Assembly: GCA_963791725.1 (NCBI GenBank)
Contig: CAWBTQ010000003.1
Coordinates: 10,516 to 74,515, forward strand
Origin: an uncultured Chloroflexia bacterium
Lineage (GTDB): Bacteria > Chloroflexota > Limnocylindria > Limnocylindrales > CSP1-4
Direction: 5' to 3'
Length of the DNA: 64,000 bases
Every line of letters starts with the position of its first letter. The first letter of the stretch is position 1. The translations under genes and the position numbers were made by a program. Below are positions 8,495 through 44,766 of the stretch, piece by piece. Under the pieces are notes generated by a model. The model searched no databases. It worked only from the letters and a program-made list of their open reading frames with translations, and was not told where the DNA came from.

Positions 8495-8601
8495 CAGGCC
8501 TCCGCCCGGTGGCGGCAACCTGGCTGGCCAGCAGTGCTGTCGAGCTGCTTCACGAGCCGCCGTAGCCGTGAAGACCGTGAGCCGATCACCGACCTCGAGG
8601 A

Positions 8602-26760: not shown

Positions 26761-27425
26761 GCTTCCTCCAGCCGGTAGCCGGCACCGCGAACCGTGACGA
26801 TGCGTATCCCGGCGTTCGGCAGCTTGGCCCGCAGCCGGCTCAGCTGGACGTCGATGGCGTTCGAGCCCAGGGGATCGGTTTCGTCGTCCCAACCGTGTTC
26901 GGCGATCGCCTTGCGATCCACCACTGCCGGCGAGCGCCGCATCAGGAGCTCGAGGATCTTGTATTCCGTCGCCGTCAGGGCGAGGGGAGCCTCACCGACG
27001 GTAACCGTGCGCCGGATCGGGTCCAGGGAGAGAGAGCCGCGCGCAATCACGGGCGCATCGACTCCCCTTGGTCGGCGTTGCAGCGCCCGGATGCGGGCCA
27101 GCAGCTCGCCGAAGTCGAAGGGCTTTACCAGATAGTCGTCGGCGCCCGCGTCGAGGCCGCGGATCCGATCCGGTGGCGCGTCCCGGGCGGTCAGCATCAG
27201 CATGGCGGTCGGCTTGTTCTGCTTGCGGGCCCAGGCGACGACGTCGATCCCCTCTACGCCCGGCATCCGCCAGTCCACGACGGCAACGTCGTAGTCGTAG
27301 AACTTGAGCAGATCTATGGCGTCGTCACCGCGCTCCGCGGCATCGACCTGATAGCCGTAGTCCCTGAGACCGAGGACGAGGACCTGACGGAGACCTGGAT
27401 CGTCCTCGGCGACTAAGACGCGCAT
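26757..27425 (-). CDS. OmpR-family response regulator
   Basis: REC domain (MRVLVAEDDP...D at DVAVVDWRMPG). Winged-helix trans_reg_C (...AIDVQLSRLRAKL...VRGAGYRL). Confidence 0.9.
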   Translation of the reverse strand: MRVLVAEDDPGLRQVLVLGLRDYGYQVDAAERGDDAIDLLKFYDYDVAVVDWRMPGVEGIDVVAWARKQNKPTAMLMLTARDAPPDRIRGLDAGADDYLVKPFDFGELLARIRALQRRPRGVDAPVIARGSLSLDPIRRTVTVGEAPLALTATEYKILELLMRRSPAVVDRKAIAEHGWDDETDPLGSNAIDVQLSRLRAKLPNAGIRIVTVRGAGYRLEEA

Positions 27426-27716: not shown

Positions 27717-29702
27717 TCAGGCCGCTCCGGCACAGTCGTAGAGCTGGCTGTTGACGGAGCTCACTACCTTGCAGCTGGCCGCCAGCCAGGCCGTGCGCTC
27801 GCTGGCTGTGGAATCACTGGCGGCGCCGCCGAAGCCACCACCGCCCATGCCTCCGCCCGCAAGGATGAACCTCAGCTTGCCCGAGGCCACGTAGCTCTTG
27901 AGCTGGTCGAGGGTCGGCGTCGGATCGGATCCGGTGAAGCCGCCCATGGCCATCACCGGTAGACCGGTGGTCAGCTCGATGGTGCCCGCATCCTGGGCCG
28001 AGTTGATGGCCACGATCCAGGTGGCCGTGCCGCGGTTGGCGACGAGATAGTCGAGCAGCGCCGAGTCGACTCCGTTCCCGGCCGGTCCCCCCGCAGAGAG
28101 GCCCGATGCCGCTCCGCCGGGGTTGCCGCCGGCAAGGCCAGGACCGCCGGCGAGTCCGCCGAACCCGCCCGGGGTGCCGCCGATGCCGCTCGCGGTACCG
28201 GGTCCCGGATGCGGGTCGCCGCCGCCATAGGCGTTGCCCGTCGTGGCCACGGCATACGCGGCGGGCGCAAGCAGAGTGGCGACGATGCCGAACCCGGCCG
28301 CCGCAAGCGCGATTCGCCTGGCCACGGGCCTTTCGGCTAGACGCGGCAGCGAAGTGGCCGCCAGCACGACGAGCGCCAGCGCGGCCAGAGCGATCGCCAC
28401 GGGACCCAGGCCGTGGGCGAAGCCGGGCGTCCGATCCAGCAGCGTCGCGCCAAACCAGGCCGAGCCCAGGCAGGCGATGCCGACGCCGATCCCACCGAGC
28501 CAGATCCGGGCACGGCTCTTCCAGATGTCCACCAGCCCGGCTCCGACGAGCGCACCGATGGCCGGCGCGAGGGCAACTGCGTAGTAGGAGTGGATGATCC
28601 CCGACATGTAGCTGAAGACGATCGCCGTGACGACGAACCAGCTGCCCCACAGCAGGTAGCCCGCGAGGGCAATGTCGGTCCGATGAGCCCAGCGGCGTCG
28701 GAAGAGGCCGACCAGGAGACACACGATCGCGAGCGGGATGAGCCAGGCGATCTGGCCGAACATCTCGTCGTTGAAGAGCCGCAGCAGCCCGACGTCGCCG
28801 CTGAAGCCCCCGCCGCCAGCAACGCCGCCACCGGATCCGCCGGATCCAAAGATCCGGCCGAGCCCGTCGTAGCCGAAGATCAGGTCGAGCGCGGAGCCAG
28901 AAGTGCTGCCGCCGATGAACGGCTTGCCCGCGACCGGCAACAGCTCGACGATGGCCACCCACCAGCCGCTCGCTATGAGCACGGTCGCAAGGGCCAGGCC
29001 GAGCCCGACGATCCTGCGGCGCAGGGTCGTGTTTGCCGAGAAGCCGAAGACGAGCGCGTAGCCAGGCAGGACGAGATACGCCTGCAGGTACTTCGTCAGG
29101 AAGGCCAGGCCGACGCAGCCTGCGGCGAACGCCATCCAGCGGTAGCTGCCGTTCTCGAGGGAGCGGAGAAGCGCCCAGGCCGAGACGACGAGCAGCAGGG
29201 TAAGCAGCGCGTCCGGGTTGTTGAAGCGGAACATCAGGACTGCGGCCGGCGTCAGAGCCGTCACGATCGCGGCGATCGTGGCCGCGACCGGCCCGAAGGA
29301 CCGCTTCACCGCCATGAACAGGACGCCGACCGTGGCCACTCCGGCCAGGGCTTCCGGCAGGAGGATGCTCCACGAGCTCAAGCCGAACAGGCGTACCGAC
29401 AGACCCATCAGCATGGTGCTGAGGGGCGGCTTGTCGACCGTGATGAAGTTCGCGGCGTCGAAGCTGCCGAAGAACCAGGCCGACCAGCTCTTCGCGGCCG
29501 AAAGCGCCGCGGCCGAGTAGTAAGTGTTGGCGTAGCCGCTCACCGTGAGGTTCCAGATGTAGAGCACCGCGGCCAAGGCCAGCACCCCGGCGAAGGCCGG
29601 TCTGACCCATGTGGCTTCCTCCTCGCTGCCTCGGACCAGGCTCCGCAGCCTTCCTACGGGCCGAAATCTCGGCACGAAGGCGGGTCTGGTTACGGCAGTC
29701 AT
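27717..29702 (-). CDS. GT-C glycosyltransferase, family 39 / PMT_2 (ArnT-like) integral membrane protein
   Basis: 661 aa. About 12 TM. N-terminal DxD-like loop (FITVDKPPLSTMLMGLSVRLFG) typical of PMT/ArnT transferases. Gly-rich periplasmic C-terminus. Confidence 0.85.
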   Translation of the reverse strand: MTAVTRPAFVPRFRPVGRLRSLVRGSEEEATWVRPAFAGVLALAAVLYIWNLTVSGYANTYYSAAALSAAKSWSAWFFGSFDAANFITVDKPPLSTMLMGLSVRLFGLSSWSILLPEALAGVATVGVLFMAVKRSFGPVAATIAAIVTALTPAAVLMFRFNNPDALLTLLLVVSAWALLRSLENGSYRWMAFAAGCVGLAFLTKYLQAYLVLPGYALVFGFSANTTLRRRIVGLGLALATVLIASGWWVAIVELLPVAGKPFIGGSTSGSALDLIFGYDGLGRIFGSGGSGGGVAGGGGFSGDVGLLRLFNDEMFGQIAWLIPLAIVCLLVGLFRRRWAHRTDIALAGYLLWGSWFVVTAIVFSYMSGIIHSYYAVALAPAIGALVGAGLVDIWKSRARIWLGGIGVGIACLGSAWFGATLLDRTPGFAHGLGPVAIALAALALVVLAATSLPRLAERPVARRIALAAAGFGIVATLLAPAAYAVATTGNAYGGGDPHPGPGTASGIGGTPGGFGGLAGGPGLAGGNPGGAASGLSAGGPAGNGVDSALLDYLVANRGTATWIVAINSAQDAGTIELTTGLPVMAMGGFTGSDPTPTLDQLKSYVASGKLRFILAGGGMGGGGFGGAASDSTASERTAWLAASCKVVSSVNSQLYDCAGAA

Positions 29703-30454: not shown

Positions 30455-32380
30455 CTAGGCTGGGTTCGGAGTGTGTCGTCGAACCGGAGCCCTCGCCAGG
30501 GCGGATCCGCCCAACGAACGCCGACCCGGTGCGTTCTGCAGCAGGAGCAGCAGGCTGGGCACGACGACCGGAACGAGCAGGAAGAGGATCGGCAGATACG
30601 GATCCGGCGAACTCGGCGGGAGCGGTACGACGTCCGCAGGACTCGCAGTCGTGATCACCAGCTGCGGCGGGTTTGCTCCCTCGCGCGAGGATAGTGAGAC
30701 GGCCGTGCTGTTCGTCGTCGAGATGCCGAAGCTGACCAGCCCGTTGCCTGTCACCGCGGAAGTCACGTCAGCGCTGGTCCACGATCCGGTCGTTATGGGG
30801 CCCGAGCTGCCGAGCTGAGCGCCGAAAGGCGGAGCATTGGCGTCGGTGATCGTGGTTTCGCCCCAGGTCGTGTCGGCGACCGAGTAGGCGTTGTAGCCGG
30901 TCGATTGGGCGCTGTTGGCCCAGATGCGCAACGTGGCGTTGGTCACGGTGCCGCCGATGCCCGACACGTTGAAGCGCAAGAACGAGCGGACTGTCGGCGA
31001 GCCATCTATTCGGATCTGGGTGGAGGTGCCGAAGTTGGCCCCTGGGTTGGAGGCGTCGACGTAGCTGTCGGCGACGGGCGTGAAAGTCGATGCGGCCACG
31101 ATCGGAGTCGGCGTGGGCGTCGCGACCGGCGTCGGCGTGGGAGCCGGCGTCGGAGTCGGAGTCGGTGCGGGGGTCGGCGTGGCCAAGGGCGTGGGCGTCG
31201 GAGTCGGAGTCGGTGCGGGGGTCGGTGTGGCCAAGGGCGTGGGCGTCGGAGTCGGAGTCGGTGCGGGGGTCGGCGTGGCCAAGGGCGTGGGCGTTGGAGT
31301 CGGCGTTGGAGTCGGCATGGGACCGGCGCTATGGCAGGTCGCGGAGCCGCTGTCTGTAAACGAACCCACGGCCGGCTTGAAGCTCCAGTCGTAGCTGCCC
31401 TGATGCAGAGTCAACGCCAGGATTCCGAAGGTGTTCGTGTTACGAACGATGCTGTTGGGGGCGATCGAGGAGATTGAAGTGTGGTCAGCGCCACCGGTGC
31501 CGACCGTGATTTCGACGATGCCGTTCGTCGGATCGAGTGCGCCCGTCGGCGACTGCGGCGCGAAGCGCTCGTAGATGTGGTCGTGGCCGTCGAGGATCAC
31601 GTCGGCGTGGGCCGCGTATAGCTGCTGCCAGAACGACTTTGAGTTGTTGTTCGCCCGGCCCCCCGAGCTGAACAACGGGATGTGCCAGTACGCCAGAGTG
31701 CACTGGTTGGGGTGAGCGGCGAGGTCCGCGGCTAACCACTTGCCCTGAGGAGAACTGGCCGAGCAGCCGCCGGCGCTGGCGCAGTTGGTGTTGAGCGCGA
31801 TCAAGTGCCAGGACCCCACATCGAAGCTGTAGTAGCCCTGGCCCTGAACGCCCGCGGCGGACCCGAAGTAGGTGAAATAGCCCGCCGCATTGGTGTTGGA
31901 GCTGTCGCAGCCCGTCGATGGCTTCGAGCCTCCAGAGGTCAGATACTCGTGGTTGCCGACCACGGGATGGGTGATGGCTTTCACCTGGCCCCAGCTCGGG
32001 TCGTACGACTGCTGGAACGCGGCCAGACTGCCGCAGTAGTACTGGTTATCGCCAAGCGCCAGCACGGCCGCAAAGCCACCGCTCGCGAGTTGAGCCGCGG
32101 TCGCCCTCTGTTGGCAGACGCTGCTGGTGGCCCCATTGAAGTGGGCGTCGGCAGGATCGCAAGCGATGTCGCCCGCCGCGGCGACGGTGGGATCTCCGGC
32201 CGCAGCCACGGGACGTGCCACGAACGGCCCGGCGGCAATCCAGGCCACCACCAACAGCCCAGCCACGGCGAGCCGCATCCACCCGACCCACCAACCCGTC
32301 AGGCCGGCTCGCCGGCCTTTTGCCTTCCCGGCCAGCGAAGCAAGTTCGGGCAGGCGTGGCACGACGGCGATTGGGCTCAT
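30455..32380 (-). CDS. exported calcineurin-like metallophosphoesterase, with Pro/Thr linker, DNRLRE-like carbohydrate-binding-type domain and C-terminal TM anchor
   Basis: 641 aa. MPE motifs [26 protein letters not shown] ~75-aa [14 protein letters not shown] linker. Beta domain ...[20 protein letters not shown].... Hydrophobic tail [19 protein letters not shown] then GRR. Confidence 0.8.
31100..31330. repeat. ~48-bp tandem DNA repeat (about 4 copies) encoding the PT linker of the metallophosphoesterase
   Basis: Repeated GGCGTGGGCGTCGGAGTCGGAGTCGGTGCGGGGGTCGG(C/T)GTGGCCAAGG units on the plus strand. Antisense reading gives the GVGVGAGVG ORFs in the track. Confidence 0.7.
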
Positions 32381-32908
32381 GGTCCCTCTTCTGCTCGAGG
32401 CAGCCGGTGGGTCGCCCTACCCGCAGGCGCCGGAGCCCAAGCGGTTTCGGATATTAGAGTTGAGACGTAACAATTAGAAGCGGCCCGATCGCATTCGGAC
32501 CGCCCGTCCTACCAGGTGGTCTGGCCGATCCACGGTCCGGGCGCGCCTGCCCAAACTCGGTTCCGGTGGGACCCGGTGTACGGGTCTAACGGAGGGAGCG
32601 GCGGATTGCCGCGCGTTCGCAAACGTCATCGCCCGCGCAGGTGAGATCGTCCCTGAGCAAGCGCAATACGGCTGTCGGGTAGGGTCCGCAAGGGAACCTC
32701 TGCCAATGGGTGGTTGACGCCCCGGAGCTCCGCCCGGAACGCTTGATAGCCCGAGCGGCCCGACAGCCGGGACGATCGGCCGGAGGTTGGCGTCGCACAG
32801 AGTCCAGATCGAGACTCTGACGGCCCAGCACGGCACGCAGTCCACCACGACAGAAGCGTGCGCCGCAGGCCCGACGCTCCGAACAATGGCCGCTCGCGGG
32901 AGGTCCAA

Positions 32909-34012
32909 ATGACGCCTGGCGCCCATCCCAATCGCCGTCTTGCCTCTGTCGTCGGAATCGCTGCCACATTGATGGCCATCCTGTGGGCATGCTCGAATGC
33001 GCTTCCGTCTCCCCACCAAAGCCCGACGAACGCAATCAGCCCATCGGGCGACTCATCGGTTCTCGGCGCTACGAACGCTCCAACGGCCCCTCCAACCGCA
33101 GGACAATCTGGGCTGATTTCGCCTTCGCAAGCCGCCATAACGCAGCCCGCCTCGCCCGGTCCAACGTATACCGGAGGCGGAACGACCAGTCCGCGGCAGG
33201 GTGCCACCGTGACGGTTGTCGCCGCCGGGGATATCGCCTGCGATCCCGCCCACAACGTCGGCGCCCCGACTGACTGCGACCAGGCGGCCACAGCGAATCT
33301 GATCGGACAGCTGCACCCGACGGGCGTCCTCACCCTTGGAGACAACCAATACGAAGACGGGACCCTCGCGGCATTCAAGTCCGTCTTTGACCCGACCTGG
33401 GGCAGATACCGCTCGATCATGTACCCGGCAATCGGCAACCACGAGTACCTGACATCCGGAGCGGCCGGCTACTTCGGGTACTTCGGAGTGCCCGCCTACT
33501 ACAGCTTCAACCTTGGCGCCTGGCATCTGATCGCCCTCGACTCGGAGTGTTCGCATGTGGGCGGATGCCAGGTCGGCTCGGCGCAGGAGCGTTGGCTCCT
33601 GGCCGATCTCTCGGCCCATCCCTCGCTGTGCACGCTCGTCTACTGGCACGAGCCGAGATGGTCGTCGGGTGAGCACCAGGACGCGACTCAGATGTCCGCC
33701 ATCTGGGCCGACCTGGTGGCCGCACACGTCGACGTGGTCCTGTCAGGCCACAACCACGATTACGAGCGGTTTGCGCCTCTGGACGCCAACGGCCAACGCG
33801 ACCCAGCCGGCGTGACCGAGTTCGTCGTGGGCACGGGCGGCAAGAACCACTACGGCTTCGTCGCCTCGCCCCTCACAGGAGAGCTCGTCCGCAACGACGC
33901 CTCATTCGGAGTGATCGAGATGACCCTCCGACCCACGGGCTATAGCTGGAGCTTTGTCGCGGCTCCAGGCTTCACTTTCCGTGATTCGGGATCCGCGAAC
34001 TGCATCCCATGA
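32909..34012 (+). CDS. exported calcineurin-like metallophosphoesterase (paralog of 30455..32380, catalytic domain only)
   Basis: Start MTPGAHPNRRLASVVGIAATLMAILWAC (GGGAGG 6 nt upstream). Same motif set GDIACD/GDNQY/GNHEY/GHNHDYERF. Divergently oriented to its paralog. Confidence 0.8.
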   Translation: MTPGAHPNRRLASVVGIAATLMAILWACSNALPSPHQSPTNAISPSGDSSVLGATNAPTAPPTAGQSGLISPSQAAITQPASPGPTYTGGGTTSPRQGATVTVVAAGDIACDPAHNVGAPTDCDQAATANLIGQLHPTGVLTLGDNQYEDGTLAAFKSVFDPTWGRYRSIMYPAIGNHEYLTSGAAGYFGYFGVPAYYSFNLGAWHLIALDSECSHVGGCQVGSAQERWLLADLSAHPSLCTLVYWHEPRWSSGEHQDATQMSAIWADLVAAHVDVVLSGHNHDYERFAPLDANGQRDPAGVTEFVVGTGGKNHYGFVASPLTGELVRNDASFGVIEMTLRPTGYSWSFVAAPGFTFRDSGSANCIP

Positions 34013-34227
34013 TCGGGCCCGAGCCGGCAATCAGCGAGACGCCCTGCCTTTAGTGGTGGGGCTAGACATCCCTGATTTGGGTGGCTCAGGGTAGGGATCC
34101 TTCCACCTGTCGGGACGGGTACCCACCCCAGGGTCTCAAAGCGGGAACAGCGGTCGTAAGGGGGTCGCCTTAGGGAGTAGATTGCCGCCTTCTGAAGCCC
34201 ATCCCGGTCCATTGGAGGATGCTCCGC

Positions 34228-34986
34228 GTGGCGACTTCAAAAGCTCACCTCTGGTTCGTGTTGCCCACGTACAACGAGAAGGACAACGTCCGCCCGATGA
34301 CGGAAGCCATCCTGGCCAGCGTGCCAGGAGCATCCGTGCTGATCGTCGACGACAACTCGCCCGACGGGACGGGCGCCATCGCGGATGAGTTGGCGGCGCG
34401 GCGAGCGGACGTCGCCGTCCTCCATCGCGAGGCCAAACAAGGCCTGGGCCGGGCCTACGTGGACGGGTTCTGCAACGTCGCCGCGCGCGGCGCGGCGATC
34501 GTCGTCCAGATGGACGCCGACTTCAGCCATCCGGTGCGGTTCCTGGCGCCGCTGCTGGAACCAATCCTCTCGGACAGGGCCGATGTGAGCCTGGGCAGCC
34601 GCTACGTGCCTGGCGGCGTCATTCCGCGCTGGAGTCCGATACGCAGGTTCATCAGTAGAGGCGGCGGCCTGTTCGCCCGCACGGTCCTGCGATTGCCGTA
34701 TCGCGACCTGACGGGCGGCTTCAAGGCGTGGCGGATGTCGGTCCTTCAGGCCATCGATCTGGACGACGTCCACGCCGGCGGTTACGCCTTCCAAATCGAG
34801 ATGACGTACCGCGCACACCGCCTCGGGGCTCGGATCGTCGAGGTCCCGATCACCTTCGAGGAACGCCGCGAGGGCGCTTCGAAGATGAGCAAGGGCATCT
34901 TCTTCGAGGCGTTCAAGGTCGTCGTCGGTCTGCGGCTGGCAGCCGCGAGAGGTCAGGTGCCGGCCACGAAGCTCGGTCACCTCTGA
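34228..34986 (+). CDS. polyprenol-monophosphomannose synthase / dolichyl-phosphate beta-glycosyltransferase (GT2, Ppm1/DPM1-like)
   Basis: GT2 motifs VLPTYNEKDN, IVDDNSPDGT, QMDADFSH. GTG start at 34228 is 9 nt after GGAGG. The ATG at 34219 abuts the SD. Confidence 0.85.
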   Translation: MATSKAHLWFVLPTYNEKDNVRPMTEAILASVPGASVLIVDDNSPDGTGAIADELAARRADVAVLHREAKQGLGRAYVDGFCNVAARGAAIVVQMDADFSHPVRFLAPLLEPILSDRADVSLGSRYVPGGVIPRWSPIRRFISRGGGLFARTVLRLPYRDLTGGFKAWRMSVLQAIDLDDVHAGGYAFQIEMTYRAHRLGARIVEVPITFEERREGASKMSKGIFFEAFKVVVGLRLAAARGQVPATKLGHL

Positions 34987-35140
34987 TCATTCCGCACCAG
35001 CTCAACGGACTGTGTGAATAGATCAACGGAAACCGTGAGCCGCGCCGCTGGCGGAATGGAGGACCCGGCGGCCAAAAGTCAAGTTTCGAATTCATTGCGT
35101 CCCAAATCGCCGCCAGCTGCACTCATTCGGGGGTCACATC

Positions 35141-38100
35141 ATGAAGGTCCAAACACTCAGCAGGGCCGGGCTTCCTACCTGGCCCCGACTGGCCATCCTG
35201 GCCAGGTTCCTCATCGTCGGACTCACCGGCATCGCCGTAAACGAGCTGGTGTACGTCCTCATGGTTCACGATCTGGCAATCTGGTTCGTCGTCGCGGCGA
35301 TCGCCTCGACGGAGGCCTCCACGACGTGGAACTTCCTGGGCAACGAGCTGTGGGCGTTTTCCGGTCGGCGCCTCGTGGGTCCCGCCTGGGCTCGATACCT
35401 GGCGTACGCCGGCATGAACAACGCCATGCTCCTGCTACGCGTACCGATGCTCTGGCTGCTGTCCGACTTCGGCCGCCTCGGGCCGGCCTCGGCCAACCTG
35501 ATAGCCCTCGGGGCGCTGTTCGCCATGCGCTTCGCGCTCTCGGACGGATTGGTCTGGCGCCAAAAGGGCGCGAGCGCCTACGACGCGGTGGACTCGACCG
35601 GGGAGCCTGCGCAAGCCTACCGCTATGACATTGGTGGCCTGTTGAGGCTCGATTCCGACTCCGAGTTGCCGGAGCTCGCGTACTTCCGCACGGCCGCGGT
35701 TACCCCGCCCGACATAAGGATCAGAACTCGCCGTGTGGCATCCATCCCCACGACGCGCGTCCGACTTCGACGGGATGGCGACCGGGTCACGTACCGCGAG
35801 CACCTGGGCATCCTGGGCGCGGACTTCAACGTGACCATGGGAAAGACGATCGACGTCGAGGCTTCGCAGCTTCTTTCCCTGTCGCGGCATGTCCTCTACA
35901 CCAACGTGGTCGAGGCGCTGCTCCGATTCGTGCTCGTGTCGAAGGGCTACGTTCTGCTCCACTCCGCGGGTCTCGACGTGGAAGGGCGGGCGACACTGCT
36001 CTCCGCGCAGACCGATACCGGCAAGACGAGCACGGTCATCAACCTGGTCCGCGAACGCCACTGGCGCTTCATCTCCGACGACATGGCGATCATCGACCCG
36101 GCGGGCTTCGTTAGGACCTTCCCCAAGCCGATGACGCTGTCCTACCACACCATGACTCGGGCAGTGGACGCCAGCAGCCTGACTCCCAGCAAGCGGATAC
36201 AGCTGCAGGTCCAGAGCCGTGTCCACTCCAAGAGCGGTCGCTCGGTCGGCAAGGGACTCGGCACCCTAAATGTGCCGATCATGTCGATCAACAGCGTCCT
36301 TCAGATCATGGTTCCGCCGCCTAAGTACCACATCACCTCCTTGCTTCCGGCGCACATCGCGACGGAGTCGCCCATCGCCAACGTCTTCCTGATGGAGCGA
36401 GGTGAGCCCCTACAGGAGCGCGTTCCTCTCGAGGCGGCAATCGACCAGCTCATCGAGAACACCGACGACGCGTACGGCTTCCCGCCATTCGCCGCCCTGG
36501 CGCCTCATTTCGTGATCGACGGCGCGGACTACCCGGCGTTGCGCGCGCGCGAGCGCGAACTCCTGACGACGGCGATGAAGAACGCCTCGATCTGGCGGCT
36601 GCGAGTTCGCGGCCACGAGTGGGGCGAACTGCTGCCGAAGCTGATCCTCGGCGAGCAGCGCGAACTGGTCGGCATTCCTATCGAGATTGACGAGCGCGAG
36701 CCGGTCGGCATTCCCATCGAGACCGGCGAGCGCGATCTGGTCGGCATTCCTGTTCCGGCCGGAGGAATGACTGCTGAATCAGCCGGAGGGCCTTCGCGCC
36801 CTTTTTCCTCTCGCCGCCAGCCCCCGGAGACGCGTGCCAGTCACGGACTGGCGTACCCCGACGCGGGGCCGGGCGGGATTAGCAACTTCAAGGCGAGCGT
36901 GCCCGGCCCGACGAATCGGGCGCGTCGTCGCACATTCGAGTCCGGCCCGCCTCGCGGAACGGCTTCACGAAACGTGGGCGCTCAATCTGCGGCCGCCGCG
37001 GCAGTCGCTGTCGGTCCAGTCCCGGGCTGGGGGCTGCGCGGCGGTCTCCCTCTGGTACCGAACCTGATTGCCCTCCGGGAACGAGTCGAGCAGCGCCTTC
37101 GCATCGATACTCGTTTGTGGGTCACGCTGGGCGTAATCATCCTCGCGGGAGCCGCCGTCCGGCTCTGGGCGATCGGTTCGGTAGGCTTCAACAACGACGA
37201 AGCGGTCTATACGGGGCAGGGCGCCTCGTTGGCCGCAGACCCAACATACAGCGCTCTGTTCGCCATCTTCCGCGCTCATCCGCTGCTTGTGCAGTTCCTG
37301 TATTCCATCTCGTTTCGCCTCTTCGGAGTGAACGATGTCACCCCTCGGCTGATCTCGATCGCGTTTGGCCTGGGCGGCATCGGCCTCGTCTACGCGGCCG
37401 GCTCCGTCCTGTACAGCCGCAGGGTCGGGCTGATAGCCGCCGCCATCCTGGCGCTCATGCCTTACCACGTGATCGTCACCCGTCAAGCCTTGTTGGACGG
37501 GCCCGAAACCACACTCTTCCTGCTGAGCATGTACATGCTCGCTCGCTTCGCTCGCGGAGGAGACTCTCGCTGGCTGTACAGCGCGGCATTTACGACAGGC
37601 CTCACGGTGCTCGCCAAGGAGACGGCTGTACTGATCGTTCCGGTGGCCGTCACCTTCCTGCTTCTGGCGCCGGAGATCCGTATGCTCCTGCGCCAACAAC
37701 TCCTCGCAATCGGGCTCTTCTTCCTGGCAGTCGTGCCGTATCCGGCCGCGATCCTCATCGGTAAGGGGGGCGGTGCCGCTCAGTCTTTCTTCCTGTGGGA
37801 GGTCCTCCGCCAGCCGAACCACACATGGACTTTCTACGCCGACGTGCTGCCGGGTGCCGTAGGTCCGCTCGTCTTCCTGGCGGGCGTAGCGGGGCTCCTG
37901 TTCGCGGTCCGCCGAGGGCGCTGGGAGGACCGGCTGATCATCAGCTGGGTCGCCGTGCCGGTGGCATTCTTCGAAATCTGGCCGGTCAAAGGCTTTCAGT
38001 ATCTTCTGCCAATCGCCCCGGCCCTCGCGATTCTCGCCGGCGTGAGCTTCGACCGGTTGATTCAGACAGCCGAGCGTGTCCCCCAGAGGCCGAGCAACGA

Positions 38101-38698
38101 GGCAGCGGTCGAGTCCTCCGCGATCGCGGGGTACCCGGTCGAGGAACCGCGGCCGTGGCGCATACGCCTCCCCAGGGTGCCGCGCGCGGTTGCCGTCGGG
38201 GCGAGTGCCCTCCTTCTCGCCGTGACTATGGCGAGCATCGCGGTGCCGACGGTCCTGGCTGTGAACACGACTTCCATGAGCGGCTCACTGGCCGGTACGG
38301 GAGGACTGCCCGGTGGCCGCGACGCCGGTTTGTGGATCCGAGAGCACGTTCCCCAGGGCGGCGTCTTCCTGACCACCGGCCCGACGCTGGCCAACATCAT
38401 CGAGTTTTACGGACAGAGACAGGCATACGGCCTGTCCGTCAGCCCCAACCCGCTGCGGCGCAATCCGGCCTACGACCCCGTCGTGAATCCGGACCGTTCG
38501 CTCCAGCTCAACAAGATCCAGTACATCGCGACCGACATCTGGTCCACCCAGCGCTCGCCCTTCTTCGACAAGCTGCTGAGAACCTACATCGCCAGGTTCC
38601 ACGGGGTGCTGGTCTACCGGCAGCCGGCCGAGGTCCGCGATGCATCGGGCAACATCTCGAACCAGTTCGTCATCCAAATCTACGAGGTCAGGCCATGA
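35141..38698 (+). CDS. tri-domain fusion: GtrA-like (aa 1-~140) + HprK/P-like P-loop kinase domain (aa ~200-430) + GT39/PMT_2 GT-C glycosyltransferase (aa ~610-1185)
   Basis: Single 1185-aa frame. GtrA 4-TM N-terminus. Middle [47 protein letters not shown] aligns with the HPr-kinase C-terminal P-loop (LHGvlvdvyGvGvLitGdSGvGKSE...rGHrLvaDD). Three 12-aa VGIPIE repeats follow. Then the ~12-TM ArnT/PMT-like domain with periplasmic tail. Confidence 0.75.
36662..36762. repeat. 3 x 36-bp in-frame tandem repeat (encodes E/D-x-VGIPIE-x-x-ERE linker between kinase-like and GT-C domains)
   Basis: gaactggtcggcattcctatcgagattgacgagcgc / gagccggtcggcattcccatcgagaccggcgagcgc / gatctggtcggcattcctgttccggcc. 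Confidence 0.6.
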
Positions 38699-40191
38699 AG
38701 GGGCCCGCCCCCTTCTGGCGCTCGCTCGGGCGTCGCCCGCTCATCGTGCGTGCCGGCGCGGTGGGGATCGCAGTCGCCCTCTCGGCGGCCCCTCTCATCT
38801 TTGTCGCGCCTGTGGCGGCAGCAACCAAACCGATACAGCATTTGATCTTCTTGATGCAGGAGAACCACACCTTCGACAACTACTTCTCGGCCTTCCCGGG
38901 CGTCGACGCGCCTCCGAGTTCGACGTGCGAACCGAACTGGATACCGAGCCCGAGCCCCGCGCCGACGCTCCCGCCGACGCCAGCCCCGAGCTCTTCGGCA
39001 GGCCCCACGCCGACGCCCAAGCCGACATCGAAGTCCAGGGCGACGCCCAGCGCGCCGCCAAGTCCCACACCCGCTCCCACGGTGCAGTCGGCGACTGCGT
39101 GCTTCACGAGATTCCATCTTTCCAGCCACCGGACTGTGGACCTCAACCACGGCGCCGATGCGGCGCGCAAGGCTCTTGACGACGGTGCGATGGACGGCTT
39201 CTCGGCCGCACAGGGCCAATACGGCTTACCGACCGACCTGCCGATGGGCTATTACGACGGCTCGGATCTCCCGCTCTACTACAACCTGGCCAGCGATTAC
39301 GTACTCGCGCAACGTTTCTTCAGTTCCGCCATGGGCTCGAGCGACATCAATCACATGTACTCGGTCGCGGCCCGTGGAGGCGGACCTCTGCCCGCTACCG
39401 GCTACGAGTTCGATACCATCTTCGACCGCCTTGAGGCCGCCGGGGTTTCGTGGAAGTTTTACGTCCAGGGATACGACCCCTCGATCAACTTCCGCAATCA
39501 CAGCCCGACCGATCCGAAGGCCGCTCAGCTTATCTGGACGCCGCTGCTCGACTTCTCCCGCTTCATCGACGACCCGGCGCTGGCGTCGCATATCGTCGAC
39601 CTTCAGCAGTACTACACGGATCTGCAAACCGGCCATCTGCCGGCGGTGGCCTACCTTGTCCCGAGCGGCCTGTCGGAGCATCCGCCCGGAGACATCACTT
39701 CCGGCCAGACGTTCGCAGTGTCGACGGCGACTTCGTTGATGCGCAGCACGGCGTGGGACAGCAGTTTCTTTGTGGTCACGTGGGATGACTGGGGCGGCTG
39801 GTACGACCACGTTACCCCGCCGCAGGTGGACAACGATGGCTACGGCTTCAGGGTCCCGGCCATCTTCGTTTCGCCGTACGCGCGTTCCGGAACAATCGAC
39901 AACACGACCTACGACTTCACCTCGATCCTCAAGTTCATCGAGGACAACTGGTCGCTGCAACCGCTCACGGCCCGCGACGCGACCGCCAACAGCATTGCCG
40001 ATGCGCTCGATCTGAGCCGGGCCCCGGCTGCGCCGGTCTTCCCGGCTCAGACGTACCCCGTCAAACCCTCGTTCGATACGCAAAACAGGCCCGTGCTGCT
40101 TGCGATGTACGGCGCCTTCGTCGCCTTTGCGGTCATCTGCGGCGCGTTCCTGCTGCGGCCCCGGCGGCGCCAGGCTCTCAAGGGAACGTGA
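38695..40191 (+). CDS. phosphoesterase-family protein (PF04185: non-haemolytic phospholipase C / acid phosphatase AcpA-like), exported with C-terminal TM anchor
   Basis: Hallmark [15 protein letters not shown]. Start ATG overlaps the fusion-gene stop (ATGA at 38695-38698). Pro/Thr/Ser-rich insertion. C-terminal [22 protein letters not shown] then RPRRR. The track ORF 37795..40191 is a 5' over-extension. Confidence 0.8.
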
Positions 40192-40200
40192 GGTCCATCG

Positions 40201-41664
40201 ATGGCTGAACGCCGTTCCACGTCGCGCGCGAAACGCCGGCTCGCGCATCTGGCCGTCACGTCGGCTCTCGCCCTGGCGGTCGCAATCCCCCTCGCTCCGG
40301 CGGCTGCGGCCGAGTCGGCAGACGCTACCCTAACGGCGGTCGCAGCCGGCGCGCTTGCTCCCGTGTCCGTTGTTCATCACACGAAGTCCGTCGCGACGAT
40401 CGCGACGATTGGCACGTCCCTTTCGGTTCAGGTTCCCTCTGGGAGCGTGATCGGCAAGGACGTCGACATCTCTACGGTCCTGCGCAACCGGTCTGGCCAG
40501 CCCCTGGCCGGCGAGCACGTGTCGCTCCTTCTGGACGGGGCCCCGATCCGCAGCGACAAGACGGACCCTCACGGCGCCATCACCTTCACCATACCCGGCA
40601 AGAGTCTGGCTGAGGCGCGCGCCTATGCGCTCGTGGTCGAATTCGGCGGGGCCCGCGGCCTGGCGCCGTCGATCGCGAAGGCCACTCTCACCATCCTTGC
40701 GGCTGCGATCCAGATTCAGACTGTCCCGCCGCTGGCCAACATCAGATTCACCCTGGGCCCCGAGGCCGCCACGACCGGCCCGGACGGCGTGGCTGCTCTG
40801 CCCATCCCCAAGACGGGGAGTTACGCCCTTACGGCCGACCTGAATCCCGACAACTCACCTGCGGCTACGGTCAGGGCCAGCTTCGTGCGCTGGCTCGACA
40901 ACGTCTACACCGCCAACCGCAATATCGACGTCTCCGGGCCGGCCACCTACGTGATAGGCCTCCGCGTGGCATACCGAGCCTCGATCCGGTATGTCGACCT
41001 CGACAACAATCCGGTCGATCCGGCCCTCATCGATCAGGCCTCGTTCAGCGCCGGCATCGGCACCGACGACGTAATCCTCAGCTCGCAGACGAAAGCCAAC
41101 GACGTCTGGTGGACGGCCGCTACGACGGTCCGCATCAGCACGTCGCTGACTGCGTCACCGGTCACCTATCGGGCCCTGTCGGTCAAGATCCACGGCGCCG
41201 ACGTGGTCAACCGAGGCCAGCAAGCTTGGACGCCGACCGAAAACGGGGAATGGACGGTCCAGTTGCTCTTGTACACCATGACAGTGCGGGCCACGGACGC
41301 GATATTCGGCACGCCCGTCTCCGGACAGCTGCGGCTGACTTATCCCGACGGGGCATCTGTCGAGCAGCACGTCGCTTCGGATGGACGCATCGCGTTCGCG
41401 AATCTCCCACGCGGCCAGTACCAGCTTGGGATCAGCCCATCGGTGTTCTCACCGCCAACTCCGGTCGCGTTGTCGCGACCCCAGGAGGCGATCATCAGAG
41501 TGATCACCTACCTGGACGCCATCCTGGTGACGCTAGCCCTCCTCCTGGTCACGCTGCTGCTGGTCGTCATCGGTCGCTGGCCCGTGGTCCAACCGGTTCT
41601 TCGGCGTCTGTCGCGGCGTATGTCGGACAGACTCAACAGGCTCGCCAGAGAGTTCACTTCATAG
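40201..41664 (+). CDS. exported hypothetical protein with C-terminal TM anchor (Ig/transthyretin-like beta repeats)
   Basis: Signal peptide ...ALALAVAIPLAPAAAAES. Repeated beta-sandwich-like segments. TM LVTLALLLVTLLLVVIG near the C-terminus. Confidence 0.55.
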   Translation: MAERRSTSRAKRRLAHLAVTSALALAVAIPLAPAAAAESADATLTAVAAGALAPVSVVHHTKSVATIATIGTSLSVQVPSGSVIGKDVDISTVLRNRSGQPLAGEHVSLLLDGAPIRSDKTDPHGAITFTIPGKSLAEARAYALVVEFGGARGLAPSIAKATLTILAAAIQIQTVPPLANIRFTLGPEAATTGPDGVAALPIPKTGSYALTADLNPDNSPAATVRASFVRWLDNVYTANRNIDVSGPATYVIGLRVAYRASIRYVDLDNNPVDPALIDQASFSAGIGTDDVILSSQTKANDVWWTAATTVRISTSLTASPVTYRALSVKIHGADVVNRGQQAWTPTENGEWTVQLLLYTMTVRATDAIFGTPVSGQLRLTYPDGASVEQHVASDGRIAFANLPRGQYQLGISPSVFSPPTPVALSRPQEAIIRVITYLDAILVTLALLLVTLLLVVIGRWPVVQPVLRRLSRRMSDRLNRLAREFTS

Positions 41665-41679: not shown

Positions 41680-42927
41680 ATGCAGCTTCCGCGATCGAAG
41701 AACGCCGGCCTGGCAGGGGCGATACCAATCATCTTCGTGCTCGCGGGCGCGCTGAGCACGCTCGGTCTGGCCGGGTCCCCGCACCCGTCCCCAAGTCCGA
41801 CGGCAGCCGCAGGGCCGACCCCCGTGCTGGCCTATTACTACATGTGGTTTGGCACCGCCAGCTGGACCCATGCCAAGACCGACCTGCCGGCTCTCGGGGC
41901 CTACACGAGCACGGATCCGGCCATCATCCGGCAGCAAGTGACGTGGGCCCGTGAATCGGGGGTGGACGCCTTCATCGCTTCGTGGAAGAGCACGCCCTCC
42001 CTGAACACGGCCCTCTCCGAGCTGGTAGCCGAATGCCATCGCCAGGGTCTCAAGCTGGTCCTCATATACGAGGGCCTGGACGTCAACCGCAATCCGATCC
42101 CAGCCTCCACTGTGAAGGCCGACCTGCTCGCGTTCGAGGACCAATACGGTTCGGATCCGGTCTTTCAGCTCTTCGGCAAGCCGGTCGTCATCTGGTCGGG
42201 CAGCTGGGCATTCAGCGATGCGGACATCTCAGCCATCCGAAGCAGCCTGGGAGCGCCGGACAAGCTCCTGCTGCTCGGTTCCGAAAAGAGCGGGGCGGCC
42301 TACACCGCCCGGGCCGGCTTGTTCGACGGCGACGCCTACTACTGGTCATCGGGAGATCCTCTCGCGACCCCCGGCTACCAGACGCGACTGACCCAGCTTT
42401 CAGCCTCGGTTCACGCCGCCCACGGCCTGTGGCTCGCTCCCGCCTCGGCCGGGTACGACGGCCGTCTGAATGGCGGAACGACGGTTGTCGACAGGCGCGA
42501 CGGCGCGACGTTGAGGTCGGCCTGGTCCGATGCGTTGGCCACGAAGCCGGACGGAGTTGCGCTGATCAGCTGGAACGAGTACACGGAGAACTCCTACGTC
42601 GAGCCGAGCCGGGACTTCGGCATGCGCTACCTTCAAGTCCTGTCCGGCATCACGGGAGCACCGGGACCGCCGACCGGAATCGCGCCAGCGGCGGGCACTC
42701 TGCCGCCGACCACGGCCCCTCTACTGACGGCGCAGTCCCCCGGCGCAACGTCGCGGCCAAATGCCTACGACGCGACCGCCTTGCTCGTGGCCGGGCTGAT
42801 CCTCGGGCTTCTGGCCCTGCTCGGTTTCAGCCTTAGACGCAATGACGCCCGCTCCGGATCGCGCGCAGATGGAACTCAGAGCGAGTTGGGCCGCCAGTCC
42901 GATTCGCCCGGTGGACGTTTCCGATGA
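41680..42927 (+). CDS. glycoside hydrolase family 99-like protein (putative endo-alpha-mannosidase), signal anchor + C-terminal TM
   Basis: GH99-type start VLAYYYMWFGTASW. Core ...DAFIASWKS..., ...LISWNEYTENSYVEP.... C-terminal TM LLVAGLILGLLALLGF. Confidence 0.6.
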   Translation: MQLPRSKNAGLAGAIPIIFVLAGALSTLGLAGSPHPSPSPTAAAGPTPVLAYYYMWFGTASWTHAKTDLPALGAYTSTDPAIIRQQVTWARESGVDAFIASWKSTPSLNTALSELVAECHRQGLKLVLIYEGLDVNRNPIPASTVKADLLAFEDQYGSDPVFQLFGKPVVIWSGSWAFSDADISAIRSSLGAPDKLLLLGSEKSGAAYTARAGLFDGDAYYWSSGDPLATPGYQTRLTQLSASVHAAHGLWLAPASAGYDGRLNGGTTVVDRRDGATLRSAWSDALATKPDGVALISWNEYTENSYVEPSRDFGMRYLQVLSGITGAPGPPTGIAPAAGTLPPTTAPLLTAQSPGATSRPNAYDATALLVAGLILGLLALLGFSLRRNDARSGSRADGTQSELGRQSDSPGGRFR

Positions 42928-43532
42928 TCCGGCGGCACCGTCGGGGGATATTCGGCGCCGGGGTCGTGGTCGTGCTTGCCGCCTTCATCTCAGTCTGGGC
43001 CCTGCCCAACGTCGCGGGAGCCGCATTCGTCAGCGTCCGCGCCATCGTCTCGCCGACGCTCGCATCGGGCGGACCGACCGTGGTGGTAGGCGGCGAGCGG
43101 GCGGTCCAGGCGAGCGCGGTGAACATAGCGGTCGAGATCGACAATGGCTACCCGCTGTCGGTTGTCCTGGGGACGGGGCCAACTCCATATCAGGCAGCGG
43201 TGTACCGCCGCGACAACGCCGGCCACCTGACCCGTGTCTGGCAGGTGGGCTCGGGCGACCCGACCGTGGAGGAAGGCTCCGATTCGCCGGTCGGCGGCGG
43301 CCCCTCGGGCGGGGCGGTGGTCGTGCCTCCGGGGTCATCCCGGCATTCCATCACCGATGCCTCGACAACTTTCGCCCTCTCATCCGCGGGCGATCGCAGC
43401 CCTGGCCCCGGCGTCTACTACGTTCGCGTTTGGGCTTACGGGATCGGCAGCTCGCTCGTGCCGATGGCACTGGACGGCGGGGTCGACCCGCTGGGGACGC
43501 CCAGCGAACTACCGGTCGCGCCTGCGGTCTGA
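42924..43532 (+). CDS. exported hypothetical protein
   Basis: The start overlaps the previous stop (ATGA). N-terminal TM/signal GAGVVVVLAAFISVWALP. 202 aa. Confidence 0.5.
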   Translation: MIRRHRRGIFGAGVVVVLAAFISVWALPNVAGAAFVSVRAIVSPTLASGGPTVVVGGERAVQASAVNIAVEIDNGYPLSVVLGTGPTPYQAAVYRRDNAGHLTRVWQVGSGDPTVEEGSDSPVGGGPSGGAVVVPPGSSRHSITDASTTFALSSAGDRSPGPGVYYVRVWAYGIGSSLVPMALDGGVDPLGTPSELPVAPAV

Positions 43533-43560
43533 CCGCTTCCGCCCCGGCCGGGTCCGGCCG

Positions 43561-44766
43561 TCACTGGCCTGGCGAGACCCTCGTCACCCAGTAGGCCGTC
43601 CGATCCAGGTATGCGTCGGGAGCCTCCGAAGCCGCCCGGCCGTAGGCGCCACCGTATCCGGTATAGGTTCGCGCCCCGGCCGCGAAGTCGACCGCCGGCT
43701 CGATCTGAGTGCCCTCGTGCCATTCGTTGAACGAGGTCACGCTAACCCACTCGGCGCCGGCCGCGACGACCCCTTGCCACATGGCGTCGTAGCGGGCGCC
43801 GTTGTCTCTTGCCACGAACTGCTGACCCGTGGCCACGGCCTGGCTATTGTCGAACCCGGGACTGACGCTCGGGCTGCAGATGAGTCTGGCGGCCCGGCAG
43901 TCCGCCACGAGACCCGCGAGCGCGGCAGGCGACGCCATCGGGTCGTACGTGTAGACGCCGTCCGCCCCCACCCTGGCGGCGGTGGAAGCCTTCGGCGAGT
44001 GAACCAGGACGATGGCGTCGTCCTGAGTCCGGCGAAGCCCGGCGATCGCCACTTTGAGGGCCGCCACCGGCAGCCTGCTGCTACCGAATAGATAGAAGAC
44101 CGCGCGAGGAGAGGTGGTTTCGCTCGCGGCAGTCGGCCGTGACACGCGCAAGAGGGCCGGCGACGAACCGAACCGGCCGAGAAGATAACGGATGTCAGAC
44201 GCCACCGAACCCGCGGTCTGGCCCTGGTAGGGCTCGATATGGAAGGCGATCTTGATGCCATTGGCCGCGGCGGCGCTGAAGACCGCATCGAGCGATCTGT
44301 CTTCCCATGACCCAACCCCCCACCAGCTGACCGCAATCGCACCGACCCTTGCCTGGCGCAACTCGGCCATCTGCGACTGCAGCACGAGGGGGTCGCGCGA
44401 AGAGTACGGCCCACGCTCCGGATAGAAGGACGACGCGATGTTGTCGGGCGGCACGTGCTCGAGCTGGTTCCAGTGTCGCCACGCCCCGTCGCCGGCAGGG
44501 GTCCCGTACCACACGTAGAAGAAGGCGGTCACGGCCGTCGATGGGGCCGGAACTGTCGTCGGGCTGGCAACGGGGGTGGCGCTCGCTTGGGTGCTCACCG
44601 GCGCGATCAGGAGCGTGGGCGTGATCGAGCTCGACGAAGTCGGCGGGTTGCTCGGCGGTTGCGTGCCGCAGGAAGCCGCCACCAGCGCGGCAAGCAGAGC
44701 CAGGGCGAAGCGGGCGAGACGTGCCCGACCTCGTCCGGGTCCGCTGTTTGGGAGCATCAATAACAC
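43561..44766 (-). CDS. glycoside hydrolase family 99-like lipoprotein (putative endo-alpha-1,2-mannosidase/mannanase)
   Basis: Lipobox LAALVAASCG. Motifs FFYVWYGTPAGDGAWRHW, FYPERGPYSSRD, VSWWGVGSWED, HIEPYQG, TSFNEWHEGTQIEP. Confidence 0.7.
   Translation of the reverse strand: MLLMLPNSGPGRGRARLARFALALLAALVAASCGTQPPSNPPTSSSSITPTLLIAPVSTQASATPVASPTTVPAPSTAVTAFFYVWYGTPAGDGAWRHWNQLEHVPPDNIASSFYPERGPYSSRDPLVLQSQMAELRQARVGAIAVSWWGVGSWEDRSLDAVFSAAAANGIKIAFHIEPYQGQTAGSVASDIRYLLGRFGSSPALLRVSRPTAASETTSPRAVFYLFGSSRLPVAALKVAIAGLRRTQDDAIVLVHSPKASTAARVGADGVYTYDPMASPAALAGLVADCRAARLICSPSVSPGFDNSQAVATGQQFVARDNGARYDAMWQGVVAAGAEWVSVTSFNEWHEGTQIEPAVDFAAGARTYTGYGGAYGRAASEAPDAYLDRTAYWVTRVSPGQ

Follow-up and report, generated by a model that had tools for sequence, protein, structure and literature searches.

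A predicted PEPCK/HprK-fold domain recurs beside synthase, GT-C transferase and exported phosphoesterase genes in a putative envelope-glycosylation cassette of Chloroflexota, Dormibacterota and Actinomycetota

Textbook glycosylation from polyprenyl-phosphate sugars has three parts and no ATP-dependent step after donor synthesis. What, then, would a kinase-like domain do in such a system? The question is raised by a 64,000-nucleotide stretch of contig CAWBTQ010000003.1 (positions 10,516 to 74,515 of the forward strand; hereafter the window; G+C 65-72%) from an uncultured bacterium of the Limnocylindria (Chloroflexota), in which one open reading frame (ORF) of 1185 codons places a kinase-like middle domain (referred to as "mid") between a GtrA-type module with four transmembrane (TM) helices and a GT-C glycosyltransferase. 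A first-pass annotation, made from the sequence letters, had described this protein as a single-polypeptide fusion containing an HPr kinase/phosphorylase (HprK)-like domain that lies outside any described Gtr, PMT or Emb system. On the latter point we agree, as we found no description in the literature of a kinase-like domain in Gtr, PMT or Emb systems, or of a GtrA/kinase/GT-C combination. The analysis below suggests that mid belongs to the superfamily of phosphoenolpyruvate carboxykinase (PEPCK) and HprK, and that the conserved domain set, found beside secreted phosphatases, points to a step of phosphate handling in cell-envelope glycosylation that has not been described. The parts of the ORF and the gene preceding it are as follows, in window coordinates:

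34219-34986, + strand: GT2, predicted catalytic half of a split DPMS (dolichol-phosphate mannose synthase)-type polyprenyl-phosphate hexose synthase, 255 aa (Glycos_transf_2, 92.7 bits)
35141-38698, + strand: whole ORF, 1185 aa, uninterrupted from ATG to stop, comprising GtrA/DPMS-TM module, mid (PEPCK/HprK-like), disordered linker and GT-C
35177-35557, + strand: GtrA/DPMS transmembrane module (PF04138), residues 13-139, four long helices
35603-36649, + strand: mid, residues 155-503, predicted cytoplasmic P-loop phosphotransferase-like domain of the PEPCK/HprK superfamily, uncharacterised family
35951-36091, + strand: catalytic core of mid, residues 271-317, with His274, the P-loop S288-A-Q-T-D-T-G-K295-T296 and S312-D313-D314 (at least 95% conserved, n = 191)
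36653-37057, + strand: disordered low-complexity linker, residues 505-639, pLDDT <50 and no secondary structure, the site of fusion or splitting in relatives
36657-36751, + strand: 36-nt tandem repeat inside the linker, 2.6 copies with 84% matches, encoding RE(L/P)VGIPIE-type 12-aa repeats
37064-38695, + strand: predicted GT-C glycosyltransferase, residues 642-1185, with a PMT_2/ArnT-like membrane core and a C-terminal alpha/beta domain (1055-1185)
37196-37201, + strand: D686-E687, acidic motif of the first extracytoplasmic loop of the GT-C, at least 95% conserved (n = 78 homologues) and without variation in alignment A2

The fold of mid was established through a predicted structure, because a search of PDB chain sequences with the mid family profile gave nothing relevant and no PEPCK, its sole match being L7Ae (E 0.6). 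The AlphaFold model of this approximately 350-aa domain is confident (pLDDT 91.7, pTM 0.91) and two-lobed, and compares with known structures as follows:

PEPCK 1ii2_B: score 17.5, 269 residues aligned, 3.7 Å
HprK/P catalytic domain 1jb1_A: score 14.3, 126 residues aligned, 2.1 Å
GTP-dependent PEPCK 9e32_A: score 13.6, 266 residues aligned, 3.8 Å
PPi-dependent PEPCK 8e1u_A: score 8.7, 267 residues aligned, 3.5 Å
Generic P-loop kinases: score about 6 or lower

The model thus combines the PEPCK-like P-loop architecture of the HprK catalytic domain with the two-lobed PEPCK fold, and aligns more fully with PEPCK than with HprK. Residues ~160-502 are also the most conserved part of the protein, being 44-50% identical even to copies in other architectures (among the first BLAST matches), and an alignment of 21 diverse mid copies (A1) contains the invariant motifs LLHSA, SAxTDTGKT, FLSDDM, PKPLTIS, QSRxHSKxGR, PPPK, and NTxDAYGFPP. 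Among 191 family members that cover at least 300 profile positions, drawn from five architectures, H274, A289, D292, T293, G294, K295, T296, D313, and D314 are at least 95% conserved, as are K329, S334, H336, T337, S359, H362, S363, G366, R367, P393-K395, N440, and D443. When mid is set against the Walker A motif GxSGxGKS, the catalytic His upstream of it and the Asp-Asp pair downstream, its His274, K295, T296, and D313-D314 are kept, whereas invariant Ala289 and Asp292 stand in place of the two P-loop glycines. Judged by model and conservation together, mid looks like a catalytically intact member of the PEPCK/HprK P-loop superfamily.

Sequence profiles place mid less firmly. Hpr_kinase_C (Pfam PF07475) matches the ORF with 13 bits (E 0.078, residues 273-318) and the mid family with 13-15 bits, under its cut-off of 33.3, and hpr-ser (TIGR00679) gives 15-17 bits against a cut-off of 240, so that neither profile admits mid. 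The curated cut-offs of the HprK-related families (TIGR04352, TIGR04355, and ScmC, TIGR04249/PF27840) are likewise not reached: the best, HprK_rel_A (TIGR04352, NCBIfam), scores 33 bits against 200 (E 1.4e-7, residues 268-334, profile positions 94-160), and ScmC 16 bits against 125. PF27840, which is named "ScmC", has precomputed matches on many relatives, all weak or faint. The 21 aligned members match HprK_rel_A (21/21), HprK_rel_B (17/21), Hpr_kinase_C (15/21), hpr-ser (14/21), and ScmC (12/21), and essentially nothing else, with every match confined to the ~65-residue P-loop core and far under cut-off. No PEPCK family was found in the Pfam and NCBIfam scans of mid; hhalign of the mid profile to Escherichia coli PckA is weak (E 0.005, probability 7%) and aligns the kinase motifs alone, with H274/H232, TDTGK295T296/SGTGK254T255, and SD313D314/GD268D269 colinear. 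From these profiles mid appears to form an uncharacterised family of its own, whose nearest sequence relatives are HprK-type kinases.

The earlier HprK-like label for this domain therefore needs qualification. The 47-residue core peptide that it quoted lies at residues 271-317, and the fold, the catalytic His, the Lys/Thr pair and the Asp-Asp pair are all there; the domain fails every curated HprK threshold, however, and is ~350 aa long, two-lobed and more fully alignable with PEPCK. Compared with HprK/P and the HprK-like kinases of pathways for ribosomally made, post-translationally altered peptides (RiPPs) (HprK_rel_A/B, ScmC, lasso-peptide kinases, LppK), mid has the P-loop SAxTDTGKT instead of GxSGxGKS, is double their size, differs in the N-terminal lobe, contains a helical insert, and is found in a membrane-glycosylation context rather than in phosphotransferase system (PTS) or RiPP clusters; domain scans of the window proteins found no ptsH or PTS genes in the cassette. 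Compared with the ATP-, GTP-, and PPi-dependent PEPCKs, it is short (~350 aa vs. 510-600+ aa), 10-13% identical, outside the family profiles and membrane-tethered, and the oxaloacetate/PEP-binding residues were not identified in it.

The setting in which mid is encoded provides the second line of evidence. The next gene begins with an ATG at 38695 that shares bases with the large ORF's stop codon (ATGA), and it encodes the phosphoesterase that the first reading had placed there. The genes around the ORF are:

38695-40191, + strand: exported PF04185 phosphoesterase (PLC/AcpA family), 498 aa, signal peptide (PF04185 E 4.3e-66; acid_phos_Burk and PC_PLC in NCBIfam)
40201-41664, + strand: conserved exported protein, 487 aa, signal peptide, position kept in the cassette in three phyla
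41680-42927, + strand: exported GH99/GH71-like protein, 415 aa, signal peptide (Glyco_hydro_99 E 8.7e-11), position kept in the cassette
43561-44766, - strand: GH99 lipoprotein, 401 aa, lipobox (Glyco_hydro_99 E 1.4e-58)
32858-34012, + strand: Metallophos phosphoesterase lipoprotein, 384 aa, lipobox, recurring in related loci
30455-32380, - strand: exported Metallophos and CBM96/DNRLRE protein, 641 aa, recurring in related loci

All the phosphoesterase and GH99-like partners carry a signal peptide or lipobox. The 487-aa exported protein matched no family above threshold in the Pfam and NCBIfam scans, with a sub-threshold CarboxypepD_reg match. A tblastn comparison of 82 related loci showed that the order GT2, GtrA, mid, GT-C, PF04185, the exported protein of no assigned family, and GH99-like is kept in Chloroflexota, Dormibacterota, and Actinomycetota, so the domain set recurs and the neighbouring phosphoesterase stays with it across three phyla. 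In the reverse test, all four PF04185 relatives (~50% identity) have a PMT_2 gene directly ahead of them and the exported-protein and GH99-like genes behind them; mid is adjacent in two of the three informative loci, and the fourth locus ends with its contig. In locus L088, a soluble stand-alone mid (7001-8140) heads an operon of PMT_2, PF04185, the exported protein and the GH99-like protein, with neither GT2 nor GtrA in view. The ORF is, as far as gene order and domain content indicate, central to a conserved cassette predicted to act in envelope glycosylation and linked genetically to exported phosphoesterases.

Some of these loci contain further genes next to mid. Between mid and GT-C in L088 lies a gene for a 282-aa TPR-repeat protein with a signal peptide (8137-8985), and in L089 an LPG_synthase_TM (flippase-like) gene (595-1585) is directly upstream of a stand-alone mid. 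Orphan GtrA-mid genes occur too.

The mid family is widespread. An exhaustive search of representative proteins with the mid profile returned 3483 matches at E<=1e-3, of which 663 reach E<=1e-10 and 247 reach E<=1e-30; relatives are encoded in the genomes of at least 553 species. The 80 best of these genomes belong to Chloroflexota (Limnocylindria), Dormibacterota, and Actinomycetota, and include the cultured Micromonospora yasonensis DSM 45980 and Oryzobacter terrae NBRC 109598. Streptomyces diastatochromogenes has a GtrA-mid-GT-C protein labelled "glycosyltransferase family 39 protein" by NCBI; the public annotation of relatives is limited to "GT39", "GtrA" or "dolichol-phosphate mannosyltransferase". 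When the 191 well-covered members were sorted by the lengths of their flanks, and the forms confirmed by Pfam scans, their architectures were distributed as follows:

GT2-GtrA-mid: 49/191
GtrA-mid-GT-C: 47/191
Stand-alone mid: 34/191
GT2-GtrA-mid-GT-C: 32/191
GtrA-mid: 29/191

Mid is fused directly behind the 4-TM GtrA module in 46 of the 73 complete reference loci. Pfam also reveals permuted orders, namely mid-GtrA in P0178 and GT2-mid-GtrA in P0191, as well as a MannoseP_isomer/cupin-GT2-GtrA-mid fusion in P0099. NTP_transf_3 matches in some relatives were discounted, as they overlap the GT2 domain.

Besides the cassette members, Limnocylindria contain a second class of GtrA-mid paralogues (class II) of ~550 aa, whose mid is 50-55% identical and which occur without the cassette (loci L039-L058, L064, L066, L068, and L074, e.g., L047:9524-11161). 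The idea that a GT-C gene stands beside every class II gene was refuted, since a divergent PMT_2 GT-C lies immediately upstream in only about 8 of the 23 cases (as at L047:7108-9396); the remaining ones are surrounded by housekeeping genes, hflX and a PALP enzyme among them. An 808-aa ORF upstream of the class II gene in L047 proved to be in the wrong frame (27% Arg), the true gene encoding a 762-aa PMT_2 protein.

Is the single polypeptide in the window real? The continuous frame claimed by the first-pass annotation is borne out from ATG to stop. The G+C content at third codon positions (GC3) of its own frame is 0.75-0.88 along the length except in the low-complexity linker, where it falls to 0.63-0.68 while the frame remains open. 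The alternative, that two separate genes have been run together by an overlooked stop or a frameshift in the linker, can draw on the finding that residues ~541-660 show a coding GC3 signature in none of the three frames, on near relatives (L003, L013, L015, and L017) that carry GtrA-mid and GT-C as two ORFs, and on obvious frameshift errors in some related metagenome-assembled genomes (MAGs; L019). Against it, the ORF's frame is the only stop-free one there, staying open over the 135 codons of the linker, against 2 and 3 stops in the remaining frames; a protein identical to the ORF product (P0001) is on record from a 366-kb contig; and ~40 orthologues from independent metagenomic and MAG samples, obtained with different assemblers (61-77% identity, 99-100% coverage, same architecture), each keep a single ORF of 1169-1250 aa despite a variable linker sequence. 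More distant GT2-GtrA-mid-GT-C fusions are 1300-1500 aa long. Because the linker frame is open and the orthologues have one full-length ORF, the 1185-aa fusion is genuine, neither a chance ORF nor a missed stop, and the chance of an artefact is next to negligible.

What did not stand is the notion of a singular arrangement. In reference genomes, the triple fusion is limited to close relatives of the window (5 complete and 3 truncated loci), and in relatives a little more remote the linker is interrupted by a stop or by a change of frame. The single polypeptide represents a fusion state specific to one lineage, and in other carriers of this widespread cassette the parts are separate, differently fused or permuted. 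In the related MAG locus L019 (9500-13400), at least 7 frame changes are needed to read GtrA, mid, and GT-C, evidently through assembly indel errors, and caution is therefore due when fusion or splitting is read from assemblies of this kind.

Upstream of mid, the GT2 gene and the N-terminal module of the ORF together resemble one known enzyme. The module matches GtrA_DPMS_TM (PF04138) with 64.6 bits against a cut-off of 26.1 (residues 22-139), is modelled by AlphaFold2 (AF2) as helices 13-44, 49-72, 82-109, and 115-138, and aligns with residues 251-373 of Pyrococcus furiosus DPMS (5mlz) at E 1.7e-14 with the family profile and E 2.8e-4 with the single sequence. The GT2, found immediately upstream as first reported, aligns with 5mlz residues 27-243 (E 3.1e-30) and has weak NCBIfam matches to AglJ, PpgS, and Dol-P-hexose transferase. 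Although the GtrA-type reading of the four helices is sound, they are better read as the TM half of a split enzyme: by homology, the GT2 and the 4-TM module represent a Pyrococcus-type polyprenyl-phosphate-hexose synthase divided at the catalytic/TM boundary. Both halves are thus covered as in P. furiosus, and in most relatives the GT2 and GtrA parts are on one chain; unlike the Pyrococcus enzyme, the one in the window is split, with its TM half fused to mid and GT-C, and all family members have mid, which P. furiosus DPMS lacks. The hexose is probably mannose, as hinted by the MannoseP_isomer/cupin fusion in P0099, the GH99 neighbours and DPMS as the best match. A precedent for lineage-dependent fusion exists among polyprenyl-phosphate-mannose synthases: in Mycobacterium smegmatis, Ppm1 and Ppm2 are split. 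Ppm1 of M. tuberculosis is a two-domain fusion (PMC3485146), so that here too the catalytic domain is fused to or separate from its membrane partner according to lineage; in contrast to the window protein, the membrane domain of Ppm1 is Lnt-like rather than GtrA-like, and neither a kinase-like domain nor a GT-C is fused to it.

The C-terminal part matches PMT_2 (PF13231, residues 713-865) with 70.5 bits against a cut-off of 26.1, and this match overlaps a weaker one to PMT (PF02366, 34.5 bits, cut-off 22.7). In profile searches with the GT-C family, ArnT 5ezm is matched over ~300 residues (E 1.2e-11), ahead of STT3 (E 1e-4) and of Pmt1/2/4 (E 2e-3 to 8e-3). Foldseek with the full-length model returns STT3, ArnT (TMt 0.60-0.62), AglB, ALG12/9, and PglB, with E 1e-11 to 1e-6 for STT3, ArnT, AglB, and ALG9/12, and Pmt4 far behind ArnT and STT3 at E 1e-4. 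Many GT-C polar residues besides D686-E687 are at least 95% conserved in the 78 homologues. The "glycosyltransferase family 39" label of relatives in NCBI is automatic, and the label supported by these profiles and models is a PMT_2/ArnT-like GT-C, GT39 being unproven. The ArnT/PMT-like part of the original description thus survives, with PMT_2 as the family and ArnT closer than Pmt1/2/4 (E ~2e-3); the GT39 assignment is not established. The profile searches likewise recovered GtrA and PMT_2 above cut-off, in contrast to the weak Hpr_kinase_C match (13 bits), and the confident model places mid in the PEPCK/HprK fold.

The full-length AF2 model shows helices at 13-138, the folded mid at 160-503, disorder at 505-639, the membrane core at 642-1042, and the alpha/beta domain at 1055-1185. 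A basic N-terminus, the four TM helices ahead of mid, and basic residues flanking the linker before the first GT-C helix are the available cues to topology. From the four helices, the positive charges at the linker and the placement of the GT-C catalytic loop outside, we infer that mid is cytoplasmic, on the same face as the GT2.

How does this cassette compare with described systems? Known three-component polyprenyl-phosphate-sugar systems include GtrA/GtrB/Gtr(type), ArnC/ArnEF/ArnT, PpgS/Rv3632/Rv3779, and CsbB/GtcA/YfhO. The window has the same gene set (GT2 synthase, GtrA-family protein, and GT-C), encoded together within 34219-38698 and colinear in three phyla, with synthesis predicted inside and transfer outside. 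In contrast to those systems, in which we know of no kinase-like part, it adds the PEPCK/HprK-fold domain as a fourth part fused in various orders, and is tied to exported PF04185 and Metallophos phosphoesterases and to GH99-like proteins.

The first-pass annotation had suggested that its kinase-like domain could phosphorylate the lipid-linked donor, the glycan or the acceptor. Based on these features, we propose that mid phosphorylates a lipid-linked intermediate of the glycosylation pathway in an ATP- or PPi-dependent reaction, a reading suggested by genomic context and modelled fold to which we give somewhat less than an even chance. The split DPMS-type synthase would make a lipid-linked sugar, and the ArnT/PMT_2-like GT-C would use that sugar outside the membrane. 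Since the predicted cytoplasmic mid is genetically tied to extracytoplasmic enzymes, the two sides would most simply be linked via a lipid intermediate that crosses the membrane; further, mid is fused to the synthase and/or the GT-C in every order (six forms), a Rosetta-stone type of coupling. The acceptor may be free carrier polyprenol, in which case polyprenyl phosphate would be regenerated for the synthase, or else the hexose head group of polyprenyl-P-hexose. Outside, the exported PF04185 (PLC/AcpA type) and Metallophos enzymes, constant companions of the GT-C, would create or remove the matching phosphate or free lipid alcohol, and the steps together would close a carrier or phosphate cycle. 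A functional analogy is provided by the release of diacylglycerol by LtaS, OpgB or EptA and its rephosphorylation by DgkA or DgkB, and by the undecaprenol kinase DgkA, where a phospho-step outside is paired with a kinase at the cytoplasmic face acting on the same lipid; unlike in those couples, there is no sequence or fold kinship, the lipid would be polyprenol instead of diacylglycerol, and the pairing in the window is deduced from gene linkage only.

In its most specific form, which we regard as unlikely, this proposal makes mid the founder of a PEPCK/HprK-fold family of carrier-lipid (polyprenol) kinases, running a self-contained carrier cycle with the PF04185 enzyme, whose gene is translationally coupled to the GT-C. 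The phosphoesterase would free polyprenol outside, whether by dephosphorylating polyprenyl-P or by taking hexose-1-phosphate off polyprenyl-P-hexose through cleavage or transfer, which would yield a phosphoglycan; the neutral alcohol would recross the membrane without a flippase, and mid would rephosphorylate it beside the DPMS-type synthase.

Several points weigh against phosphorylation of a lipid-linked intermediate. No member of the PEPCK/HprK fold is, to our knowledge, known to act on a lipid; HprK/P is a protein serine kinase, the PEPCK substrate is a small acid, and GT-C transferases normally release polyprenyl phosphate, needing no kinase. The P-loop S-A-x-T-D-T-G-K-T departs from the canonical GxxGxGK[ST] and contains an invariant Asp, so that nucleotide use is an assumption, and the many invariant polar residues beyond the P-loop fit a polar head group or a protein interface better than bare polyprenol. 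The full-length model (pLDDT 72.3, pTM 0.49) has no confident inter-domain geometry, locus L087 has the GT-C/PF04185 module with mid absent within 6 kb, and the GtrA-mid paralogues of class II mostly stand apart from any phosphoesterase, GT2 or GT-C gene. The characterised HprK-like enzymes phosphorylate protein or peptide serines (PMC13381572).

This last point belongs equally to the reading of mid as an HprK-style Ser/Thr kinase (or kinase/phosphorylase) with protein or peptide substrates; such an enzyme may phosphorylate a cytoplasmic segment of the synthase or GT-C, or mark an acceptor protein before export, and would tie envelope glycosylation to the energy or phosphate state of the cell. 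Its closest sequence families are all of HprK type, the P-loop core superposes on HprK/P at 2.1 Å, and the invariant polar surface residues would suit a protein interface; eukaryotic DPMS activity, moreover, is reportedly modulated by phosphorylation. The likeness to HprK families, however, spans only ~65 residues far under curated cut-offs, while the other ~280 conserved residues, including the N-terminal beta lobe, are PEPCK-like rather than HprK-like. Regulation of a fused GT2 would leave the stand-alone mid in operons free of GT2 and GtrA unexplained, as well as the tight link to exported phosphoesterases, and the cassette encodes no candidate substrate protein. We consider this possible, if on the doubtful side. 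The fuller PEPCK alignment could instead suggest a small-molecule kinase whose substrate is a soluble sugar, a sugar phosphate or a nucleotide, and whose work would supply the neighbouring GT2 or relieve it (e.g., mannose salvage or GDP recycling). Mid lacks PEPCK sequence membership, though, with no Pfam match and an hhalign probability of 7%; genetically it is tied most strongly to the membrane module and the GT-C/PF04185 pair rather than to cytosolic sugar-nucleotide enzymes, and stand-alone mid is found without a nearby GT2, all of which makes this option improbable.

Two further readings give mid no phosphorylated product. The first-pass annotation had raised a sensor role as its alternative, and a non-catalytic nucleotide or phosphate sensor, or a structural adaptor holding GT2, TM module, and GT-C together, would agree with the non-canonical P-loop (Gly-to-Ala and Gly-to-Asp) and with the long flexible tether, which suggests an assembly role. 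Yet the catalytic His, Lys, Thr, and both Asp are conserved across five architectures in the pattern of an active enzyme, and an adaptor role does not explain the soluble stand-alone forms; we find it highly improbable. Hardly any weight is left for an ATP-using motor that drives translocation of the polyprenyl-P-sugar via the GtrA-type or LPG_synthase_TM-type membrane module. The usual position of mid directly after the GtrA module, and the stand-alone mid that follows an LPG_synthase_TM gene, would be in its favour, whereas we know of no mechanical ATPase in the PEPCK/HprK fold, the TM module in the solved DPMS (5mlz) is an anchor and lipid-binding element, and both the soluble mid without a TM partner gene nearby (L088) and the permuted domain orders speak against it.

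Other elements of the window lie near the cassette. A second GT-C (PMT_2 and YkcB_C, 661 aa, 27717-29702, - strand) is weakly similar to that of the fusion and adjoins a histidine kinase/response regulator pair (25453-26892 and 26757-27425, both - strand). Two overlapping genes for ABC exporter half-transporters (ABC_membrane and ABC_tran; 46187-47917 and 47914-50028, + strand) are located just downstream of the cassette. A c-di-GMP-II-GAG riboswitch aptamer (Rfam RF03169; 23572-23656, + strand; 45 bits vs. gathering 40, E 1.5e-5) precedes the ORF at 23679-24191. An ORF at 42842-43594 ("orf250") was dismissed as an Arg-rich wrong-frame ORF without homologues.

Across soil Actinomycetota, Chloroflexota, and Dormibacterota, the kinase-fold domain would represent a conserved fourth glycosylation part in at least 553 species. 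Should mid phosphorylate the carrier lipid or the sugar linked to it, this would reveal a new enzyme family and a new route of carrier recycling or modification, with a bearing on how dolichol and undecaprenol return across the membrane. As a protein kinase, it would instead be the first regulator of HprK type with a direct connection to envelope glycosylation. Its function can be tested in the cultured strains and with the soluble stand-alone homologue, and either way mid would add a third functional branch to the PEPCK/HprK superfamily.

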